64,000 nucleotides of DNA from Candidatus Omnitrophota bacterium (GTDB lineage Bacteria; Omnitrophota; Omnitrophia; Omnitrophales; Aquincolibacteriaceae): positions 20,164-84,163 of the forward strand of contig DAOPYQ010000007.1 of NCBI GenBank assembly GCA_035352955.1. Reading direction: 5' to 3'. Each line of letters starts with the position of its first letter. Positions within the stretch are counted from its first letter, which is position 1. A program made the translations under genes and the position numbers. Below are positions 13,455-25,415 of this stretch, piece by piece. Under the pieces are notes generated by a model. The model saw only the letters and a program-made list of their open reading frames with translations, had not been told where the DNA came from and did not search any database.

Positions 13455-13575
13455 AACTAATGGCTGGGGAACCAGGATTTGGCCCCTTCCGCTTCGCTTC
13501 AGGTAGGCCACCCGCACTTACAAACATGACATTCAGTCATGTTTTGTTCACAAGTGCTCCCCTCAAATCCTGGTG
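13455..13575. repeat. Island-terminal arm repeat (copy A). The first 18-19 nt are identical to the 3' end of tRNA-Gln; an imperfect palindrome follows.
   Basis: ctggggaaccaggatttgg at 13455-13473 equals 21533-21550 (tRNA 3' end) and 21396-21414. Downstream ...ggccacccgcacttacaaacatgacatt.agtcatgttt..acaagtgctccc.tcaaatcc.gg matches 21440-21512 at about 85-90% identity. Confidence 0.7.
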
Positions 13576-13895
13576 TTTTGGGGTGCCGTAGAGAAATTTC
13601 ATTAATTCTCACGGCAAGTTCTTGTGCATTGAGCGCAAGAGCTGCCGGATCAGGTTGAAAAGAATGGGTTATCTCTCCTCCCGGCTGATTAGAGCGGCCA
13701 TTATATTTGCCCGCATTACCCAGTACCAGCCGAATCTAGAGATACCTTCATTTCGGACATTTGACCGGACATATCAGGACAAAATGATGTCAAAAATTGC
13801 AATGCCGTACGCGGCCATCCATAAGCCGCGACGGCATAGTACTTGCGCGCTAGGCGCAAGTGTCCCTTTTGTCCTGTTTTTTGAAGGGCATTTTT

Positions 13896-13985
13896 CTGCC
13901 CTGACTTTTATTTTTTTTGGGTAGATGGTAGTCAGGACTGCCTCAATTTCCGCTTCGCGAAAATTGATAGAGATTGGGACTGCAA
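13896..13985. repeat. ~90-bp hairpin-containing repeat, intergenic copy
   Basis: ctgccctgact-(T-rich loop)-agtcaggactgcctcaatttccgcttcgc.aaattgatagagattgggactgcaa; about 80% identical to 19706-19795, which lies inside the giant CDS. Confidence 0.6.
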
Positions 13986-14128: not shown

Positions 14129-17100
14129 TTATGCAGCTTTTTGAGTTTCAGATTGAGCGAGGTAAGCTTGTTCGATATCACGGAGAAGGGCATTGCCCAT
14201 AATCGTAATGAGCCGCCCATCCTTTTTGAAAGCTTGTTCGGAAACAGGATAACCGGTTTCTTGCAAGGCCCGGATCAGCTCGGCCTTAAGATCGATGGTT
14301 TCACCGGCCCCTTTCTTCTCTTTGGCAATGATAGCCACCTTAATCAGGATCGCAGCGAACAGCGCCTGGATCGCAAATTGAGTGTCCGCATCCATGTTCA
14401 TCCCCTCAGCGTTAAAGAAAAGCCCCTGGAACATTTCGTTAAGAGCGTTTGCATCCGCCGCGCTCCCAGCATCCAGAGCCATCGGAATGGCGCTTTGCCC
14501 ATCGGAAGCCGTTACGGCAATTCCGCCACGAATTTCTTTCGGGCTTAAAGGTCTTAGATTGAAAACCTCTCGCATGGCACCGCTCACTTTTTGTGCCAGC
14601 ACTTTGCCGGTATCACGATCTGAAAAGATTTCAGCTTGAAGCCCGTTTTCCAGAACAACCTTGAAAAGCTCCTCATAAAAAGACGCTAGACCAGGACCCT
14701 GGTCCTTAGAAAAATTGAGAGCGAGGGTAATCTGGGACGTGACAGGCATAGCCCCCTCGGCCCGCACGCGGCCGAACTTGAGAATCTTGGCCACACAATC
14801 CAATACCGCAGTGAGCCTCGTTCCTCCCGCCAGAGCAACTTCCTGAGTCACCGCTCTCTTAGCCAACTCCATCCCCACAACCTGTATGGCAGATCTAATC
14901 AAAGCATCAAGCTCACCTCGAACAACCACATATTCAATATGTTGCGCTTCTTCCGGGCCGAAACGCTGTGGGCTCACAGGATTCAACGCTTCCGCAACCC
15001 ATCCGCCCATTACCTCAGTAGACGTTTCATCCGTTACACGTTGTTCAGAGCGTGTAATAATAAATTCTGAAGGAAGCCGTGAGACAATAGAGGAAAATTC
15101 CGGCATTTTTTTATTTAAAACTTCGGTCACGATCTTTTTATAATCCGCAGGTTCGGTGAACTCTTCCGGCTTGAGGTCCAGTCCGGCATATTGGTTTACA
15201 AATTGAATAAATCGGCGTGCGATTTCAGGATTGATTCTCTCAAGGCCTTCTTTCGTCAGATCCTTATAAATAGAATCCCCGAGGCTGTCCTCTAACCGAT
15301 TTTGGAAATCAAAAACAAGATCGATTGCTTTTAAATAGGCCCTGATCCGTCCCCACGCCTCTCCGGAAAATCGCTGAGCCACCGCGTTGGGAATCGCATT
15401 CAATGACTCATCCAACTTGCGCCTATCACCCCGCATTACATAAAGGTTCTGACCACCACCGGGACTTCCGTTGAATGACTTAATAAGAAGTTCCATTTCG
15501 TAGATAAGTTTTCCGAGGGGGTAATCGTTTGTTCGGGCCGACCATGGAATATCCATATTTGAGGCAAGCGTTCTTAATTGAGCCTCAGTCCCGGCAAGAT
15601 GTGCCTTGTCCATGAGGTCCAATCCTTTGACTTCATCTAACCAAGTCGTCCCGTTAAAAGGATCCGTTATATTATTAGTGATCGTCATGGGAGTAAAACC
15701 ATGATCCAGAATCGATCGCTCCACAGCTTCCTGAGCGCCAAGATTTTCATCGAAATATGCAATTTGAATCTTTTTCTGGTCCAGCCATTGCCGCATCGCC
15801 TCGGGAATTTCCGCAAGCTTCCCTCGTCTGATGAGTATCCATGAGCCCTCAGGCAATTCAAAAGGTCCAACGTGCGACGTTGCAGTATGCCAAAGGTTGG
15901 CAAAGCCCTGCTTCGACGCCTCAGAAAAGGGGCTCATGAAAATTACATCAGCCGAATTGAGCATGGCGATGACACCGTTCAATGAAAACTCTACGATATT
16001 TCGAGGCAAACTCTCAAGAGGATGTTCCCCCTCAAAATAAGAATTAGGATAAAGTGCAATCCTTTTTCCATCCCAGACAAGACCTTGGGCGGCATGAACC
16101 AAAACCATGCCTTCGGGTCGCAAAGCACCGTCAGGACCGATCAGGGGTTGAGGTTTCCCACGTTCATCCTGCTCCTGCTGATAGAGAAGCTTCTGTTTCA
16201 GCTGGTGGACCTGATCTAGAACCCCAGATATTTTCTGAAGGCTCGAATCTCTTTCACCCGCAAAGGGATCCTCATTCGACAGCTTTGCTAATTTCGAAAA
16301 ACCCTCGGCTTCCAGGTTTACGGAGGGAAACCAGGCGCCTTTTTCAAAATTTCCTCCCCACAAGCCATTTCCGTCGACAAACTTTGCAGCTGCTGAAAAG
16401 AGCCCAGCGAGCTTGATGCAGGTTGAAGCTGAAATTCCAGAATTTTGAGAAAGCTGTGCGATCTTTTCAGCTCCCCAATCATCGGAACTTCGGATATAAC
16501 GGTTTTCTTCCTGGCTCCAAGGCAACTCGATAGGAGCATTCAAATAACTGGAAATAGCCAACGCTGTATCTGTTTCTCGTCGCGTGAATCCTAAATCCGT
16601 CATTACCCGCTCGATCACTTCTTTCATGAGTCGGTCCCGGTAATCGTAAAATCTTTCATTTTCACCCCTTTCAGGAACGGGGACACCCGCCTTTAAGAGC
16701 AAGTCGATCAAAGATCGATCGTCTTTACTGAACCAGGCATTTGCAGTAACAGTTTGCATATCCTGCAAAACTGCAAGGATCCGAATCACGGCTGCGATCC
16801 TGATTCCTGGCACCGCAGGAATTCCGTAAGATCGGAGCAATGGTTCAAGAATTCTAAAATAGCGCCTTTTTGCATCTATTAAATTGATATCGTGCCAGCG
16901 CACAAGCCTTCCGGCAGTGTTCACGTCATCCCGCGCCAAATGCCGGGTAAAGATCTTTTCTAGGTCCGGGTAATGCCGAAGAAAAAATTGGACGGGATCT
17001 CCTTCACCAGCTTCGAGAAAAGCGCTATCGTTTTCGGCGAACGCCACTGTAGGGGAAAGCTCAGGGTCAAGATACTGACGGGCCCTGTTCAAGAAAGCTT

Positions 17101-20100
17101 CAATCTCTCGAACCCGTTGCAGATCCTGAATCCCCGGGATTTCCAGGGCCAACTTATCTATAACCGCGATCAATTCGCCCCTTTCCATGGAGCTAAGCCT
17201 TGGCACCCCCCCAAGATCCACCCGCGCTTCGGAGCGGCCGGCTTGACCTATATTTCCGAGCAATTTTAAAATCTCAGGGCTTTTCACAAGCGCAGGCGGA
17301 TACTGGTTCTCTCCGATTTTTTCCGCTGGCAAGGAAGACAAAATATGGGATTGCCCGGTTCGCCCGATAAACAACTCCACCTCTTTATCCTGCACCCCTC
17401 TTTTAAACCGCCATTGTTCTCCACCCACAGCGATATCAAATTCCTTGTCTCCTGTTACAGCCCTTTTAGAAAAGTCATTGCTCAAGCGCTCAAAGAGCCT
17501 ATCAACAAGGGTAAGCGGTTTCTGTTTCATGCTCGGAATCCTTTCCGCTATTGTTATTGGCAAAATCCAATCGGTAGAAGGATTCGATATATTTTTATCT
17601 CCTTGTACTTTCTCAAAGCTCTGATGCTTTTTTCTGATTAAAATAAAATGATTAAATTCTCCATTGGAAGACCTATGAAAATAGAGCGTTCCCGCATCGG
17701 TCATGTTTCTACCCAACATTCGGCTTAGATCCTGAGTCTGAACCGCGGTTGAACTTTGGGCCGGCTTTAGCCCTTGAGGCTTCTCACCCAGAAGCATCCA
17801 TACATTACTCTTTTGAGGATCAAACATCTTGGTCTCCTGGGTGTGTCCTAACAATCCAATGGCCTTCTCAGAGATCATTTTTGAAACAACCTTTTGATCT
17901 CCCGACCATGACAACTCACTCGGCACGAGAACATGAACATGATAAAACCCGGACATAGTGCCAATTTCTTGATTTTGTTCATAACCGTTATCAACCGCAA
18001 AGGCTATCATTTTTTGAAGTGCATCAAGAAAGTGAGCTGGTATTTCTTCGGAAAAAAAATTGCGTTCATTATCTTTCATATACATGGCACGATAGGCATC
18101 CCAGGTTATCCATGCCGTCGCTGGCTGTTCCAAAGATTCAGCTCCAGATTCTTCGCGGTTTTCGGAACGGGTTTCGGGGCGTTTGTTCGCTGGAGTTCCA
18201 GAATCTGGCGCAGGAGAAACCTCCTCCCGAGTAAGTTGCCAACCATACCGTGCCGATTCCTTGCCATAATTCGACCTATCGATAAAAGCACCCTGCGGAG
18301 TTACCCTCATTCCGTCTATAATTTCGCCTTCCTCATTCAGCCTTCGATGAAACTGCGCGATAACGCCTGGAACTCTGGCCTGCACTCCTCTTTCCTCTTC
18401 CTCCGGACTACGTGAGTAAGAATCATCTCTATAATCAATTATGTACTCGATGTCCGACGCACGAAATCCTTTCCCCAACAACCTATTGTGGATGGCCTGT
18501 ACATGATCAGCAAGCGAACGGCCCTTGTCTTTCCAACGTATATAAATGTGGCCAAGCCCGTAATGAGCGGCGTAATTAGCAGAAGCGCGAATGTTGATGG
18601 CAACACCAGTGCAAGCAGAAAGATTGCGTGTCACCAAGCTAACGTTTGGATAAGTGTCAGAATCAAACACGGCCAGATCGCCCGTATTTATAAAAAAATC
18701 TTCACCTTCTTTTTCTATAGGCATAACACTATCGGTTGCATCGCCGTTCCAAACGAAAACGCCTCCTTCTCCATTTTTAACGTATTTAGCAGAGGATTGC
18801 ACTTTTTTACCCGTAACAGCATTCTTAATCATTTTCAAAGAGTTCATGAGCCAAGGCAGGAGTCTGATTTCTGTCCGCCCATCAGGTGCAAGTTGATTAG
18901 CTAAAGAAACTTCAGGGATAGTAATAGTTCTGATGAGCTGGAGGATGCTGGATTCGCTAAGGTTGCCTTCAGCCTGGAGTTGTTTGAGGCCTTCGCCGAA
19001 GCGGTCGATGTTGGCGAGCCATCGCTCTTTTAGATTTGAAGTTTGGAGCCGGGAGTTCGAAGAAAGCTCATCGATGAAATGGGTGTAGTTGCCGGCTTCA
19101 GTAACTCGTCCCTCAGAAGCAAGATCGCGGATGATTTGGTCACGCCATTCTTTTCCGACGATAGCGGAAGCATTTTTATCTCCAAGAAGCTTATCTCTTG
19201 CGGCTCTTACAAAAGCATCGTAAAGATTAACTTTACCGTTTTTGACTTCGAAATAATTGCTCCAGGAGACCTGCCCCTGCATGTGTTCGCGGTAAAGCGG
19301 CTCTTCGGGAATGGAACCGATTGAAGGCATAACGAGAACATAAGAGATCCCCTTTTCTTTCAACTCCCGTGTAAGCCCTTCGGTGTGGAAACCTCCGGCA
19401 ACGAGCAGAGAGCTCTCTTGTTTTGCTTTTTCCATCATAGACTGAATATTCTCGCGGAACACTTTATCGCGCTTCTCCGCAATACGATAAAAAGCTAGTT
19501 GCGGTTCCATCTTCTTGAGAAGCGCAGTGACTTCCTCCCAGCTGACAATCCGGTCCTGCGTTACGGTCCACTGATCCAGTTGAAGCATCATCTTCTGGAC
19601 CTTTCCCCAATCCTCAAAGCTGAGTTCGAGACGAGCGAGGCGTTTGATCAAATCGAGGCCTTTGCTTTTTTGATCGAGCACGCGCATTGCGTTGACGCGG
19701 TCGTTCTGCCCCGACTCTTGTTTTTCTTTGATGGACGGTAGTCGGGGCTGCCCCAATTTCTGCTCTGCTTCAATTGATGATGATAGGGACTGGAAAAGCG
19801 ATTCCTTGACCGAATCAGCGTAACGCTTAAAGTCCTCGAAAAGTCGCGTGCCTTCAATGTCTTTTAACCGTTTTTGATGCTCCGTTAAGTAAGCCAACTT
19901 GCGGGAGACCTTGACGCGAACCCCGTATTTTTTAGCCAGTCCCTTAAGATAGAGTGCAAAAGCCTGCGGAGTGACCTGCGCGATCCTAAATTCCTGATAT
20001 TTTTGGTTAAAAATGCGCAGGTCATCCCGAGCGGAGTCGAGGGATCTTTCTTTAAGAACGGCTTCGACTTTTTGAGCGATCTTTTTGATCTCGATCTCGA

Positions 20101-20950
20101 CAGGCGTATCCGTCATTTGGCCCTTGTCCCCATTGGACAAGGACGGCTTCGGCGAGAACTTGTTGTTCTCGTCCGAACCGCTCAGTTTTATTTCTTCAAG
20201 CAATACCGCGAGTTCGGAACCTTTGGGTGGCAGCTGATATTCAGCAAGTTTATTCAGAATCTGCACAAGGTCTGTTTTATTCTCGCCAAAATCCGCCAAC
20301 AGCCGATCGATCTCAAACATCTCTTTGGAATAGACGAATCCTTTTTCCTTGTTCAGAGCGGCCGCCATCGGATCAAGCAGTGCCTTGATCTCAGGTTCCA
20401 TCTTCATCGCCTGAAGATAATAGGAAACGCCTTCTTCATAGAGCGACCAATCCTCAATGCCCTGATAGGTGCCGGGGGATGCATTGAACAGTGCTGCCGC
20501 CGTGCCGCCGGTGAGTTCGCCCCTTCCTGCGTAAGCATCGAAGGTTTTGCGAAGCAGTTCCTTATCTGGGAAACTCTTGAATATCTGCGGGTCCAGTTTT
20601 TCGGATGCCCCTTCGAGGCCGACCAATGAAACTCCGTATTGGGTCTGGAAATGATCAATGGCGGACCGAATACTGTGCTGGGCATCGGGAATCGAGTGGG
20701 CATCCTGGATCAGCACCACAACCTCATCACCCGACCCGCGGTAGGTCTCTTGAATCTTCCCGATCTCTTTAGGTATTGCGATTGCCGTAAGATCATTCGT
20801 GAGCGATCGAAAACTTACAGCAGGTGTTGGACTAATTTCAGCACTCGCTTGCGGCAAGTAACCCGAAGTCACAAAAAACGCTGCGCACACGAATAGAGCT
20901 ATTCCTTTTCTCAGCATTGGCCTTGGTGACTTTTTGTAAATCTTTATCAT
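14129..20950 (-). CDS. Giant (2273 aa) secreted protein of unknown function; N-terminal signal peptide, no domain I can assign
   Basis: Uninterrupted 6.8-kb ORF. N-terminus MIKIYKKSPRPMLRKGIALFVCAAFFVTSGYLPQASA/EIS (SPase I type). Non-repetitive sequence with no catalytic motif I recognise. Coding region is visibly AT-richer than its flanks. Confidence 0.8.
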   Translation of the reverse strand: MIKIYKKSPRPMLRKGIALFVCAAFFVTSGYLPQASAEISPTPAVSFRSLTNDLTAIAIPKEIGKIQETYRGSGDEVVVLIQDAHSIPDAQHSIRSAIDHFQTQYGVSLVGLEGASEKLDPQIFKSFPDKELLRKTFDAYAGRGELTGGTAAALFNASPGTYQGIEDWSLYEEGVSYYLQAMKMEPEIKALLDPMAAALNKEKGFVYSKEMFEIDRLLADFGENKTDLVQILNKLAEYQLPPKGSELAVLLEEIKLSGSDENNKFSPKPSLSNGDKGQMTDTPVEIEIKKIAQKVEAVLKERSLDSARDDLRIFNQKYQEFRIAQVTPQAFALYLKGLAKKYGVRVKVSRKLAYLTEHQKRLKDIEGTRLFEDFKRYADSVKESLFQSLSSSIEAEQKLGQPRLPSIKEKQESGQNDRVNAMRVLDQKSKGLDLIKRLARLELSFEDWGKVQKMMLQLDQWTVTQDRIVSWEEVTALLKKMEPQLAFYRIAEKRDKVFRENIQSMMEKAKQESSLLVAGGFHTEGLTRELKEKGISYVLVMPSIGSIPEEPLYREHMQGQVSWSNYFEVKNGKVNLYDAFVRAARDKLLGDKNASAIVGKEWRDQIIRDLASEGRVTEAGNYTHFIDELSSNSRLQTSNLKERWLANIDRFGEGLKQLQAEGNLSESSILQLIRTITIPEVSLANQLAPDGRTEIRLLPWLMNSLKMIKNAVTGKKVQSSAKYVKNGEGGVFVWNGDATDSVMPIEKEGEDFFINTGDLAVFDSDTYPNVSLVTRNLSACTGVAINIRASANYAAHYGLGHIYIRWKDKGRSLADHVQAIHNRLLGKGFRASDIEYIIDYRDDSYSRSPEEEERGVQARVPGVIAQFHRRLNEEGEIIDGMRVTPQGAFIDRSNYGKESARYGWQLTREEVSPAPDSGTPANKRPETRSENREESGAESLEQPATAWITWDAYRAMYMKDNERNFFSEEIPAHFLDALQKMIAFAVDNGYEQNQEIGTMSGFYHVHVLVPSELSWSGDQKVVSKMISEKAIGLLGHTQETKMFDPQKSNVWMLLGEKPQGLKPAQSSTAVQTQDLSRMLGRNMTDAGTLYFHRSSNGEFNHFILIRKKHQSFEKVQGDKNISNPSTDWILPITIAERIPSMKQKPLTLVDRLFERLSNDFSKRAVTGDKEFDIAVGGEQWRFKRGVQDKEVELFIGRTGQSHILSSLPAEKIGENQYPPALVKSPEILKLLGNIGQAGRSEARVDLGGVPRLSSMERGELIAVIDKLALEIPGIQDLQRVREIEAFLNRARQYLDPELSPTVAFAENDSAFLEAGEGDPVQFFLRHYPDLEKIFTRHLARDDVNTAGRLVRWHDINLIDAKRRYFRILEPLLRSYGIPAVPGIRIAAVIRILAVLQDMQTVTANAWFSKDDRSLIDLLLKAGVPVPERGENERFYDYRDRLMKEVIERVMTDLGFTRRETDTALAISSYLNAPIELPWSQEENRYIRSSDDWGAEKIAQLSQNSGISASTCIKLAGLFSAAAKFVDGNGLWGGNFEKGAWFPSVNLEAEGFSKLAKLSNEDPFAGERDSSLQKISGVLDQVHQLKQKLLYQQEQDERGKPQPLIGPDGALRPEGMVLVHAAQGLVWDGKRIALYPNSYFEGEHPLESLPRNIVEFSLNGVIAMLNSADVIFMSPFSEASKQGFANLWHTATSHVGPFELPEGSWILIRRGKLAEIPEAMRQWLDQKKIQIAYFDENLGAQEAVERSILDHGFTPMTITNNITDPFNGTTWLDEVKGLDLMDKAHLAGTEAQLRTLASNMDIPWSARTNDYPLGKLIYEMELLIKSFNGSPGGGQNLYVMRGDRRKLDESLNAIPNAVAQRFSGEAWGRIRAYLKAIDLVFDFQNRLEDSLGDSIYKDLTKEGLERINPEIARRFIQFVNQYAGLDLKPEEFTEPADYKKIVTEVLNKKMPEFSSIVSRLPSEFIITRSEQRVTDETSTEVMGGWVAEALNPVSPQRFGPEEAQHIEYVVVRGELDALIRSAIQVVGMELAKRAVTQEVALAGGTRLTAVLDCVAKILKFGRVRAEGAMPVTSQITLALNFSKDQGPGLASFYEELFKVVLENGLQAEIFSDRDTGKVLAQKVSGAMREVFNLRPLSPKEIRGGIAVTASDGQSAIPMALDAGSAADANALNEMFQGLFFNAEGMNMDADTQFAIQALFAAILIKVAIIAKEKKGAGETIDLKAELIRALQETGYPVSEQAFKKDGRLITIMGNALLRDIEQAYLAQSETQKAA
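19706..19795. repeat. ~90-bp hairpin-containing repeat, in-frame copy inside the giant CDS
   Basis: Perfect 9-bp inverted repeat gccccgact (19708-19716) / agtcggggc (19740-19748), then ctgccccaatttctgctctgc.tcaattgatgatgatagggactggaa. It encodes ...EAEQKLGQPRLPSIKEKQESGQNDRV... of the giant protein. Confidence 0.6.
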
Positions 20951-21395
20951 CTGTAAGTTTCCTTGGTCATAGCACTTCTAATTAGAATATAACCTGTTAT
21001 TTATAAAAAAGGTCTATTTGCTATATAAAGATAGTATTTACTATTAATAGTATTCTGAAAACTCCATTTTCTTTGGGAAACTCAGCTCGACACTATTAAC
21101 TTGCTATATCTCCGTTTCTAAAACATGTATGTTTCAGGAGGCCGGACACGGCAGGAATGAACAATATTGGATAACAAATTGAGACGTTGAAAACGATGGG
21201 GACAGCGGAGTTGCTGTTTCGATAAAGAGAGGCTTTCGAGACCAAGCCGGCACCAGAAACCGAACCTTCCTAATTCGGCAATAGGCCTACAAAATTCAGG
21301 GATTGGTAAATGGAAAAGTGTTTTTACGGACTTTGAAATAGCTCGGAGCTATAGGAGGAGATGCTTTGACAGCCGTGCAGAAGAACTGGGGAACC

Positions 21396-21532
21396 AGGAT
21401 TTGGCGCCTCCGCTCGCCTCGTGCAACGAGGCAAGCTACGGTCGGCCACCCGCACTTACAAACATGACATTAATTCATGTTTGTGAACAAGTGCTCCCTT
21501 CAAATCCCGGGAACCCATCAATGTAAAGAAAC
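21396..21532. repeat. Second direct copy of the tRNA-Gln 3' 18-19 nt (att-like) plus the 119-bp arm element between it and the intact tRNA
   Basis: 21396-21414 ctggggaaccaggatttgg; 21415-21532 holds the imperfect palindrome cacttacaaacatgacattaattcatgtttgtgaacaagtg, similar to copy A. Confidence 0.7.
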
Positions 21533-21603
21533 CTGGGGAACCAGGATTTGAACCTAGACTAGGTGATCCAGAGTCACCTGTGCTACCGTTACACCATTCC
21601 CCA
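21533..21603 (-). tRNA. tRNA-Gln (anticodon CTG)
   Basis: Minus-strand TGGGGAATGGTGTAACGGTAGCACAGGTGACTCTGGATCACCTAGTCTAGGTTCAAATCCTGGTTCCCCAG. It has a 7-bp acceptor stem with U1-A72, G73 discriminator, anticodon loop CUCUGGA, and T-loop GGTTCAAATCC. CCA is not encoded. Confidence 0.8.
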
Positions 21604-21816
21604 ACGTATCAAGCAGAGCAAATTTAATTGCGGCAACGGGATCTTGAAGTCCCGCTTGCGGCGTCGCGCAGTCCCGGCTGACTTGTGACCGGGGCACTAT
21701 TCCCCAATAAATCAACGATTGAATTATAGCCGATAACCTCAAAAAGAGGAGGGATTATAGCGGGACTTTCTGTTTCGCGCAATGTCTGCCGCAGAACAAT
21801 CCCGAGACTCTCGGAA

Positions 21817-24128: not shown

Positions 24129-25415
24129 TTATGAAAGAAAAGCGTTCAGGCGCCTGAGGCAGGCTTCTTTGCCGATAAGGCTCATCAATTCGAAAATTCC
24201 GGGACTCGCGGAACCGCCGGTCAGAACGAACCGGAGGGGGTGAATGATATCCTTCGGTTTCAGACCTGCGGCTTCGGCCACATGCTTGGTCTTTTGTTCG
24301 ACCAGCGCCACATCCTCAAAATCGCCGACCTCGGCCAAAAGATCGCGAAGCTGGCGAAGAAGCCCCATCGCAGCGACATTCCCCTTCACCTCGGCAAGCA
24401 GCGCGGCGTCCGTATATTCCGGATCCTTGAAACAGTAGACCGCCTGATCCATCAGCTGACTGAAGGTCTCAAGGCGCGGACGGTAGAGCGTGATGAGTTT
24501 GCGCCACTTGTCCTCGGGCGGCAGTTCCCCTTTCGCTTTCCAGAACTCCGTGATGCGTTTTTCGTAATCTTCCCCGCTGATCTGGCGAATATGCTGGCCG
24601 TTCAGCCACAGAAGTTTTTCGGGATTAAACTGCGCGTTCGATTTCACGACCCGTTTGAAAGAAAACTGTTTCACAAGCTCCGGCATTTTCAGGATCTCCT
24701 GGTTCGTGCCGGGATTCCAACCCAGGAGCGCGAGGTAGTTCAGAAGACCTTCCGGAAGATAACCGTTGTTACGGTACGCACTCACGGCGACCGCGCCGTG
24801 GCGTTTGGAAAGCGGCGTTCCGTCGGCGCCCATAATAAGCGGCAGGTGCGCATATTTCGGCGGCCTCCATCCGAGCGCCTGATGGATCAGGATGTGGCGC
24901 GGCGTGTTCGGCAAGTGGTCATCCCCGCGCACCACGTGCGTGATCCCCATATCGTGGTCGTCCACGATCACGGCAAGATGGAACGTCGGGAACCCGTCGG
25001 ATTTCATGATCACAAGGTCGTCGAATTCGTTCGAGTCGTACGTCACGTCCCCGTGCACCAGATCGGTAAACGTGACTTTGATCTTCGGCATCCTGAACGT
25101 GAGCGCGACCTTGTCTCCGTCCCGCTGCTCGTAGGCGAGGCCTTTGGCGATCAGTTCGTTCGCAACTTCACGATAGCGCTCAAGACGGCTACTTTGATGG
25201 ACAAGATCTTCATCCCAGTCGAGGCCGAGCCACCGGAGAGAATCGAGGATTTCCTGTTCGAATTCCGGCGTCGAACGCAACCGGTCGGTATCCTCGATGC
25301 GAAGAAGGAATTTGCCCCCCTGCTGGCGGGCATAAAGAAAATTAAAAAGCGCGGTGCGAACGCCTCCGATATGGAGGAATCCCGTCGGAGACGGGGCAAA
25401 ACGGACACGGATCAT
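24129..25415 (-). CDS. gltX: Glutamyl-tRNA synthetase
   Basis: MIRVRFAPSPTGFLHIGGVRTALFNFLYAR (HIGH) and PLSKRHG (KMSK). Confidence 0.9.
   Translation of the reverse strand: MIRVRFAPSPTGFLHIGGVRTALFNFLYARQQGGKFLLRIEDTDRLRSTPEFEQEILDSLRWLGLDWDEDLVHQSSRLERYREVANELIAKGLAYEQRDGDKVALTFRMPKIKVTFTDLVHGDVTYDSNEFDDLVIMKSDGFPTFHLAVIVDDHDMGITHVVRGDDHLPNTPRHILIHQALGWRPPKYAHLPLIMGADGTPLSKRHGAVAVSAYRNNGYLPEGLLNYLALLGWNPGTNQEILKMPELVKQFSFKRVVKSNAQFNPEKLLWLNGQHIRQISGEDYEKRITEFWKAKGELPPEDKWRKLITLYRPRLETFSQLMDQAVYCFKDPEYTDAALLAEVKGNVAAMGLLRQLRDLLAEVGDFEDVALVEQKTKHVAEAAGLKPKDIIHPLRFVLTGGSASPGIFELMSLIGKEACLRRLNAFLS

Follow-up and report, generated by a model that had tools for sequence, protein, structure and literature searches.

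Two similar stretches in a 64,000-nt piece of a Candidatus Omnitrophota contig (the window; positions are counted from its first letter) belong to a short, structured repeat that we read, with a probability of about 0.8, as a non-autonomous mobile element whose copies are independent of one another and can enter coding sequences in frame. One copy lies inside a giant gene for a 2273-residue protein and the other in the spacer downstream of that gene. The repeat forms a dispersed family with a conserved structure and precise ends, its copies are present at some sites and absent from the same sites in related genomes, and several stand in frame inside genes.

An earlier note on this DNA had drawn attention to the pair, and both stretches stand where it had placed them, one intergenic and one in coding sequence. 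Their similarity is real, although lower than the ~80% claimed. BLASTN within the window aligns 13894-13985 with 19704-19795 over 92 nt without gaps at 76.1% identity (E = 2e-14), with 68 of 90 positions identical on the ungapped diagonal between 13896-13985 and 19706-19795, and the similarity drops abruptly to background at both edges. The copies have the same orientation and are 5.8 kb apart, both carried by the minus strand, which is the G-rich strand of the window. The coding copy spans codons 386-416 of the giant gene, encoding FQ SLSSSIEAEQKLGQPRLPSIKEKQESGQ N, and the intergenic copy starts 144 nt 3' of the stop codon. The 9-bp inverted repeats described for the two copies exist (Table 1). 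The proposed folding also holds up: dinucleotide-shuffled controls fold less well than either copy, whether treated as RNA (z -2.5 to -3.4) or as DNA (z -2.1 to -3.3), and compensatory changes keep the main stem across the family.

The family is a dispersed repeat specific to some Omnitrophota lineages. A scan of one genome per species, covering 185,579 species, with a 24-nt core pattern (GAAATTGRGGCAGYCCYGACTACC) gave 12 matches, against ~0.03 estimated by chance. Ten of them come from records whose titles name Omnitrophota or Omnitrophica; the titles of the other two say only 'uncultured bacterium'. Several metagenome-assembled genomes (MAGs) carry matches on different contigs, and a pattern on the 5' half added three more loci in metagenomes. 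We fetched DNA around copies in pieces of 5-13 kb (loci are labelled L001-L023, homologues of the giant protein P0002-P0099) and searched ~205 kb of fetched DNA with a covariance model built from 17 copies, counting as strong any copy with E < 1e-10. This census yields 28 copies, four of them in a single 5.2-kb piece, and so the genome-wide check suggested for the 90-mer did uncover a multicopy family. Within the window, the model matches just the two copies. Another 123 kb from Omnitrophota, fetched by way of other homologues of the giant protein, contains no copy and only a sister family; the element is therefore lineage-restricted. Neither viral contigs (two patterns) nor plasmid records gave a match to the family. 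A chance or low-complexity match is excluded by the E value of 2e-14 and by the 28-copy family.

Database and literature searches did not place the repeat in a described family. No Rfam family reaches threshold on the window or on the copy-rich loci, where the sole overlap is CRISPR-DR58 at E 0.81. A literature search on Omnitrophota palindromic elements or transposable elements of the miniature inverted-repeat type (MITEs) returned nothing relevant, and term searches in two preprints on Omnitrophota giant genes brought up no mention of the repeat. A peptide profile of frame +1 had no match in a word-indexed search, where the query lies below the sensitivity of the tool and is uninformative on abundance. 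The frame 0 peptide, also below sensitivity, retrieved its own protein and spurious PASTA-repeat proteins from 1.84 billion representatives.

Each window copy has its closest relatives outside the window. Closer relatives of the coding copy in other genomes share 83-90% of its positions, among them a copy in a ValRS gene (L008) at 83%; for the spacer copy, such relatives are found in L015, L009 and L011, at 84-86%. Because the match between the two window copies is lower (76%), they are, judged by their sequences, independent members of the family and not copies of each other. The intergenic copy (13896-13979) is an old resident of its spacer. In L013, a locus syntenic with the window through GluRS, GlnRS and tRNA-Gln, positions 620-935 are orthologous to window positions 14086-13880, including this copy, and the giant gene is absent there.

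Counted from the first base behind the left triplet through the last base of the right one, the unit has 84 nt (28 codons) in 18 of the 28 copies. Its architecture is X - domain 1 - X' - hairpin B - X, in which X is a YRG triplet, usually CAG, and the internal triplet X' is able to pair with the X triplets at the ends. The conserved block ends between CA and G on the left and between C and AG on the right. Domain 1 reads GTCCCAAT..CAATTTC-loop-GAAATTGGGGC and is nearly invariant in sequence. Its 3' strand, GAAATTGGGGC, can pair either with GTCCCAAT (8 bp) or with CAATTTC to form hairpin A; the two pairings are mutually exclusive and equally conserved, and such alternative partners could constitute a conformational switch. 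In the family alignment (A3) the alternative pairing occupies columns 10-17, 24-34 and 39-52. In hairpin B, a 9-bp stem whose sequence is free closes an A-rich loop of 23 nt. Over the 28 copies, 91% of stem cells are paired (94% in hairpin B), compared with at most 52% in controls whose partners were slid out of register. Both sides have changed in 7 of 9 hairpin B pairs and 5 of 10 hairpin A pairs, the inner hairpin A pairs covary, and the hairpin B stem occurs as CCTGACT/AGTCAGG, CCCGACT/AGTCGGG, CCAAGTC/GACTTGG and CCTTGTC/GACAAGG.

The triplets at the two ends are linked to each other and to the internal one. Left and right triplets are identical in 22 of 28 copies, and both covary with the middle triplet, in the sets CAG/CAG/CAG (15 copies), TAG/CAA/TAG, CGG/CCG/CGG (also found in the nested copy described below), TGG/CCA/TGG and TAG/CTG/TAG. 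The earlier note had suggested a search for flanking target-site duplications. No classical duplication with inverted terminal repeats is found; instead, the ends are a repeated triplet. Compared as terminal inverted repeats, CAGTCCC and GGRCAG agree at no more than 5 of 7 positions, and no inverted repeat is left once the triplets are removed and the ends read TCCCAAT... and ...AGTCAGGG. A sister family keeps a hairpin of the B type with a different domain 1, and has CGTCATGA at its left end, in its middle and at its right end (L021:20375-20546, L022:19907-20095 and L023:22888-22990). The 8-nt repeated end of this family thus matches its own internal motif.

The copy inside the giant gene occupies a site whose empty form is seen in relatives. 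The protein has a conserved N module (residues 1-700), a conserved C module (residues ~1950-2273) and a variable middle cargo, and a Pfam scan finds no domain in it. Its 103 homologues come from sources named almost exclusively Candidatus Omnitrophota, with a few Elusimicrobia or similar; all have the N module and often the C module, and their middles, often rich in enzymes, are unrelated. When 23 N modules (the window and 22 homologues) are aligned with MAFFT, the segment SLSSSIEAEQKLGQPRLPSIKEKQESGQNDRV is a 31-residue insertion absent from 20 of the 22 homologues. The closest homologue, P0003, lacks it and reads FQN-EEQKALD, and only P0004 shares it; the site is filled in two genes and empty in 20 homologues. 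In DNA, with the slash marking the junction, the empty site is TTCCAA/AACGAAGAG (L004, which encodes P0003), and the filled site of the window and of L001 (P0004) is TTCCAG, 84 nt, AAC; the net difference in length is 93 nt. The F-Q codons at the left edge are kept in homologues without the insert, and the insert junction peptide in the giant protein reads ...SLFQSLSSSIEAEQK.... These empty sites support what the earlier note had proposed, an in-frame insertion of a mobile element, and we take the coding copy to be a true in-frame insertion into a variable loop that adds ~28 residues (31 net).

The note had also suspected a variable segment of the protein, and this loop is indeed a hot spot, since five more distant homologues hold ~7 extra residues there and, in L020 (the only one of them with readable DNA), these residues are encoded by a 21-nt tract of GGGACTC heptamers.

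The two filled genes are not sisters. The window N module is nearest to P0003 (79-84% identity), whereas P0004 is nearest to P0005, P0002 and P0008 (83-97%), relatives that are all empty. Window residues 419-434 are 73% identical to P0004 and at most 50% identical to any other homologue. Between the window and P0004 the unit itself is 90% identical and the flanking DNA 59-84%, the upstream values being lowered by a nearby indel. Because the block at 19649-19705 is shared with P0004 only, despite the non-sister N modules, it appears to have moved together with the unit. The simplest account would be that a patch of ~150 nt moved between related giant genes by homologous recombination; the alternative is two independent gains, one in the window gene and one in P0004. 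Six independent assemblies of the P0004 gene (L001-L003) end ~110 nt after its stop and 390-990 nt before its start, which suggests that repeats at both ends of the gene break assemblies.

Filled and empty sites recur in other genes. The GluRS of L013 has a 46-residue insert with the unit, with a junction peptide reading ...NGASPNTNQFPTR..., and the window GluRS (24129-25415), ~80% identical in protein, is empty. The extra residues fall between two matched domains of the solved GluRS 8jpv. In the ValRS of L008, ~50 extra residues are found between positions 25 and 30 of the Thermus ValRS 1GAX. Placed on solved homologues, the synthetase inserts stand either between domains or ahead of the first strand. 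The giant N module has two more filled loops, one in L016 and L007 (in different frames) and one in L005, both empty in the window.

The sharpest ends come from a nested pair. At L013 ~760-935, a second family member sits in the hairpin A loop of the orthologous spacer copy: the window reads GAAGCGG/AAATTG, and L013 reads GAAGCGG/TCCC...GGACGG/AAATTG, with CGG once before the insertion and twice after it. Comparison of filled and empty sites places the insertion 3' of a YRG triplet equal to the 3' triplet of the element itself. A different kind of trace is left in nine copies that are flanked by tandem heptamers (NNNAGAC). Deleting one unit restores the 7-nt phase, and after this removal the heptamers that span the junction match at 4-6 of 7 positions, compared with ~1.75 expected. 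The sister family occurs in the ATGA stop/start overlap of two coupled genes, as one unit in L023 and, at the corresponding place, as two tandem units in L021; stop and start are preserved, and with them both genes. The presence/absence sites, the nesting and the dispersed copies bear out the suggestion of a small mobile element resembling MITEs or repetitive extragenic palindromic (REP) sequences. The heptamer arrays flank copies in L009, L015, L007, L008, L005, L016 and L011 and are also found at L020 ~1600-1800; the window has none. Their heptamers are NNNAGAC, or GGGACTC in another MAG, and they occur in spacers and as in-frame 21-nt blocks with peptides such as PQTTDH and DSLLGTRDS.

Seven of the 28 copies, representing six independent events, are in coding sequence, and all seven are in the sense orientation. 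They lie in GluRS, in ValRS and at three sites of the giant N module, and use frames 0 and +1 only; spacer copies, in contrast, have both orientations relative to the neighbouring genes. The 84-nt copies have a mean hydropathy (grand average, GRAVY) of -1.0 in sense frame 0 and -1.7 in frame +1. Sense frame +2 is neutral, and the antisense frames are stop-filled, Cys-rich or hydrophobic (+1.1). Frame 0 normally contains a TGA (CCC TGA CT). All four frame-0 coding copies have C for T plus a compensating G, a change found in none of the 13 other copies in that alignment. In the window, the hairpin B stem of the coding copy thus has C-G where most copies have T-A, and the frame-0 TGA is thereby gone; the intergenic unit has stops in sense frames 0 and +1. 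Because the unit is 28 codons long, the reading frame never shifts. Together, the stop-free hydrophilic frames, the all-sense orientation, the loss of the TGA and the 28-codon unit argue that the inserted segment is translated and not removed, and the hydrophilic peptides of sense frames 0 and +1 suggest that copies in tolerant protein loops would be kept. In L014 (7485-7952, minus strand), an AroE-like open reading frame (ORF) runs into a copy, which supplies its last ~17 residues and a TGA stop.

How the unit moves can be framed as a model. Each insertion would add one unit 3' of an X triplet already present in the target. The three-way covariation implies that the outer triplets can pair with the inner one, and the nested case that one of the outer triplets was already in the target. 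The mode that we favor would have the unit move as a single strand in folded form, on which an HUH/Y1 enzyme of the IS200/IS605 or REP type would act in trans, with the internal triplet serving as a guide for both target and end triplets, and a coding block could then spread between giant-gene relatives by homologous recombination. By analogy with those systems, we regard single-strand movement with a triplet guide as possible, at somewhat less than an even chance. A bolder version, which we consider doubtful, is that the repeat represents an undescribed class of guide-directed single-strand mini-elements adapted to coding sequence, whose targets are chosen by a programmable internal triplet. 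If so, the 28-codon unit, the two hydrophilic stop-free frames and the stem variant that removes the frame-0 stop would reflect adaptation to life in coding sequence; the guide reading would likewise give sister families a longer internal motif in place of the triplet.

Several points weigh against mobility as we read it, and against the model in particular. No transposase adjoins any copy in the flanks inspected. The neighbours are housekeeping genes, which from their translations we take to be DnaE, HU, cold-shock, prepilin-peptidase-like, AroC-like, AroE-like and oxidoreductase genes. A tBLASTn search with an IS200 TnpA query found none in 338 kb, a small fraction of the genomes. The window genome shows only two copies in 64 kb, and the element may no longer be active there. 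Some ends are not clean: the insertions measure 138 nt in GluRS and a net 93 nt in the giant gene, and so include extra flank. The covariation of the triplets is equally a plain extension of the two stems, and the repeated end triplet also looks like a 3-bp target-site duplication. Counts of G.T and C.A mismatches do not tell which strand is folded, and one T.G in the outer stem is invariant. The sense strand lies on the locally G-rich strand in 21 of 28 copies, a weak bias that becomes 14 of 21 when coding copies are left out. Finally, translation of the insert is argued from intact frames.

The repeated triplet is the best argument for a classical cut-and-paste MITE moved by a DDE transposase, in which the triplet would be a 3-bp duplication at a preferred CAG/YRG target. 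Both flanks carry an identical triplet in 22 of 28 copies, the nested insertion turned one CGG into two, and the unit is small, numerous and without coding capacity of its own. However, terminal inverted repeats are lacking even when the triplets are counted, target duplication does not predict that flanking triplets covary with an internal one, a single transposase type should give one duplication length and yet the sister family repeats 8 nt, and no DDE gene was seen near any copy in the flanks inspected. We hold such an element to be improbable, slightly more so than a structured RNA or DNA site kept by selection for messenger stability, processing or protein binding, with the coding copies incidental, which is itself unlikely. 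A functional site would explain why the structure is conserved by compensation even in old orthologous copies and inside genes, why domain 1 is so conserved in sequence although the GluRS and GlnRS genes are only ~75% identical in DNA, why the outer stem keeps its T.G pair, and why GAAATTGGGGC has two mutually exclusive partners. It sits poorly with intergenic copies in both orientations relative to neighbour genes, with the range of settings (5' and 3' regions, spacers of convergent genes, two frames within genes), with one copy nested in another, with presence/absence differences between closely related genomes, and with hairpins that have no terminator-like U tract behind them. A mobile element may serve its host as well, which makes this rival only a partial one.

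A local origin, by duplication or gene conversion between the giant gene and its own 3' spacer, was suggested by the earlier note in the form of an intragenic copy that seeds conversion, and would suit two ungapped copies in the same orientation 5.8 kb apart. We reject it as very improbable, given that the copies are less alike than each is to foreign copies, that the intergenic copy and its flanks have an ortholog in a MAG with no giant gene at that place, and that 26 further copies exist elsewhere. The arrangement of one intergenic and one genic copy, aligned without gaps, would also fit the template and variable repeats of a diversity-generating retroelement, or an intein or intron removed after transcription. 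These we reject even more firmly. The mismatches are of all kinds and not confined to adenines, a Pfam scan of eight neighbouring genes finds no reverse transcriptase, and the sequence is dispersed in many genes and spacers. At 28 residues the insert is far too small for an intein, and no catalytic domain was found; splicing would leave unexplained why the frames are free of stops, why the lengths (84, 93 and 138 nt) are multiples of three and why the frame-0 TGA was removed, with compensation in the stem, when there was no need. The non-autonomous mobile repeat thus remains the reading that we favor, and Table 1 lists its features in the window.

Table 1. Features of the giant gene and of the two repeat copies in the window (CM, covariance model)
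Feature	Position	Strand	Evidence
Host gene, 2273-aa protein	14129..20950	-	No Pfam domain
84-nt unit inside the giant gene, codons 388-415, SLSSSIEAEQKLGQPRLPSIKEKQESGQ, frame 0	19706..19789	-	CM 94.4 bits, E 4e-24
Left CAG triplet (codon for Gln387), the presumed target; repeats the final three bases of the unit, 19706-19708	19790..19792	-	
Hairpin B, coding copy: 9-bp stem GCCCCGACT/AGTCGGGGC (19708-19716 with 19740-19748), 23-nt A-rich loop	19708..19748	-	
Hairpin domain 1, coding copy: GTCCCTAT ... ATCAATTG ... GAAATTGGGGC; inner hairpin A degraded relative to the family	19750..19790	-	
19 codons 3' of the unit, NDRVNAMRVLDQKSKGLDL; 12 nt at its start bring the insertion to its net length	19649..19705	-	
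84-nt unit in the spacer downstream of the giant gene	13896..13979	-	CM 99.5 bits, E 1.4e-25
Left CAG triplet, intergenic copy	13980..13982	-	
Hairpin B, intergenic copy: GCCCTGACT/AGTCAGGAC (13898-13906 with 13930-13938)	13898..13938	-	Shuffle-controlled folds
Hairpin A, intergenic copy: 10-bp stem, 3-nt loop, one G.U on the minus strand	13944..13966	-	

Other repeats also occur in frame in giant genes. The window gene has a second in-frame insertion of 60 nt at 20120-20179 (codons 258-277, GSDENNKFSPKPSLSNGDKG), which close homologues lack. Two small palindromes compose it, GAGAAC..GTTCTC and CCTTGTCC-AATG-GGACAAGG, the second of which resembles a hairpin B variant of the family. At this site P0017, a distant homologue, reads PKPSLPVGDK, and no other DNA copy of the insertion was found in the fetched loci. 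Further repeat families stand in frame in the giant ORFs of L005 and L007 and at L020 ~1250-1330; the peptide EREGVRGKSLQSPVSSLQS recurs beside the element in two loci, and an AT-rich palindromic repeat type encodes NIGNSDLDIVSDFELRDSNF. In homologues P0015-P0099 the giant N module is fused to PGI, PFK, enolase, PPDK, kinases, methyltransferases, Fic and helicases, and such fusions match the 'multi-enzyme' class of long Omnitrophota proteins reported in a 2026 preprint.

The surroundings of the giant gene have features of their own. Among eight neighbouring genes, Pfam identifies GlnRS, GluRS, an RDD protein, a deaminase and a phosphoesterase. The last 18 nt of the tRNA-Gln(CTG) at 21532-21604 recur at 21386-21403 and 13464-13481, each recurrence preceded by a homologous ~110-nt structured arm with the palindrome AAACATGAC-N5-GTCATGTTT (21386-21510 and 13464-13573). 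These repeats bracket the giant gene, and L013 has the tRNA and two arms with no giant gene between them, which suggests that the giant gene lies in an att-like bounded indel; no integrase was seen within this region. Between the tRNA-Gln arm and the element in L013, positions 433-508 match the SAM_alpha (SAM-II) riboswitch (45.4 bits, gathering threshold 36).

If the bolder version, a guide-directed class adapted to coding sequence, is right, these elements and the heptamer arrays would rank among the main sources of variable loops and recombination patches, both in essential enzymes and in the giant multi-enzyme proteins of Omnitrophota. For work on MAGs, the repeats add 30-50 residues to conserved proteins and extend or end ORFs, as in L014; they probably break Omnitrophota assemblies, given that the P0004 contigs end shortly after the gene, and mosaic patches can mislead phylogenies of giant proteins. 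With its sharp filled and empty sites, nested copy, heptamer phase and covarying triplets, the family also offers cleaner material for studies of movement. Were the guide-triplet model true, the element would show DNA insertion directed by base pairing in a very small natural system.

The closest analogue that we find is the Rickettsia palindromic element (RPE). RPEs are short palindromic repeats without a transposase of their own that occupy spacers and have also inserted, with the reading frame kept, into unrelated genes, often ones for housekeeping functions, whose products gain a conserved peptide that the fold of the protein accommodates (PMC10969869); R. felis has 728 RPEs, of which 85 are in ORFs (PMC1166351). 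The Omnitrophota repeat is likewise found both in spacers and, for 7 of 28 copies, in frame in unrelated intact genes. It differs in the length of its unit (84 nt versus about 100-150 nt), in its host phylum, in its use of two frames, in its covarying-triplet architecture and in its frequent setting within heptamer arrays. The likeness therefore seems one of behavior and not of ancestry, and, judged by host phylum, membership of the RPE sequence family is unlikely. A review singles out in-frame colonization of housekeeping genes as unusually frequent in Rickettsia and notes that a comparable mechanism may have been at work in other prokaryotes (PMC10969869). Finding it again, with an unrelated element and in a phylum that is free-living or episymbiotic, would make this colonization a case of convergence.

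For the mode of movement, the comparison is with palindrome-associated elements derived from IS200/IS605 and with the 'peel and paste' movement of IS608. IS608 has no inverted repeats; its hairpins are read by shape, it inserts 3' of a short target that is not duplicated, and its cleavage sites are recognized by pairing with a guide at the foot of a subterminal hairpin (PMC3201880). The Omnitrophota repeat agrees with elements of this type in three structural and positional respects: its hairpins are conserved in structure, it lacks terminal inverted repeats, and it inserts 3' of a short specific sequence such that removal restores the site; no enzyme was found in the flanks inspected or in the 338 kb searched. 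Unlike in IS608, the presumed guide and target have 3 nt instead of 4-5 nt and lie at the feet of the stems instead of 10-19 nt away, one internal triplet would serve both ends, and the strand bias with respect to replication is weak.

Other known repeats resemble ours in part. REPs are single hairpins of 20-40 nt with a conserved GTAG-type 5' tetranucleotide, extragenic by definition, and a REPIN is an inverted REP doublet. Our repeat shares with REPs the high copy number and the hairpins in spacers, but combines two different hairpins in direct tandem in an 84-nt unit, has no such tetranucleotide and places a quarter of its copies inside genes. REPs are possibly moved in trans by a domesticated Y1 enzyme, RAYT (TnpA-REP; PMC3333891, PMC8266576).

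With MITEs the Omnitrophota repeat has in common that it is small, multicopy, structured and without its own transposase gene. Correia, ERIC and Nezha elements have terminal inverted repeats, fixed-length target duplications (e.g., TA) and ties to known insertion-sequence families, and it is the terminal inverted repeat that our unit lacks. These bacterial MITEs do occasionally make in-frame fusions (PMC10969869). The flanking 7-nt arrays, as distinct from the 84-nt unit, may resemble a further type of repeat, the short tandemly repeated heptamers (STRR) of cyanobacteria.

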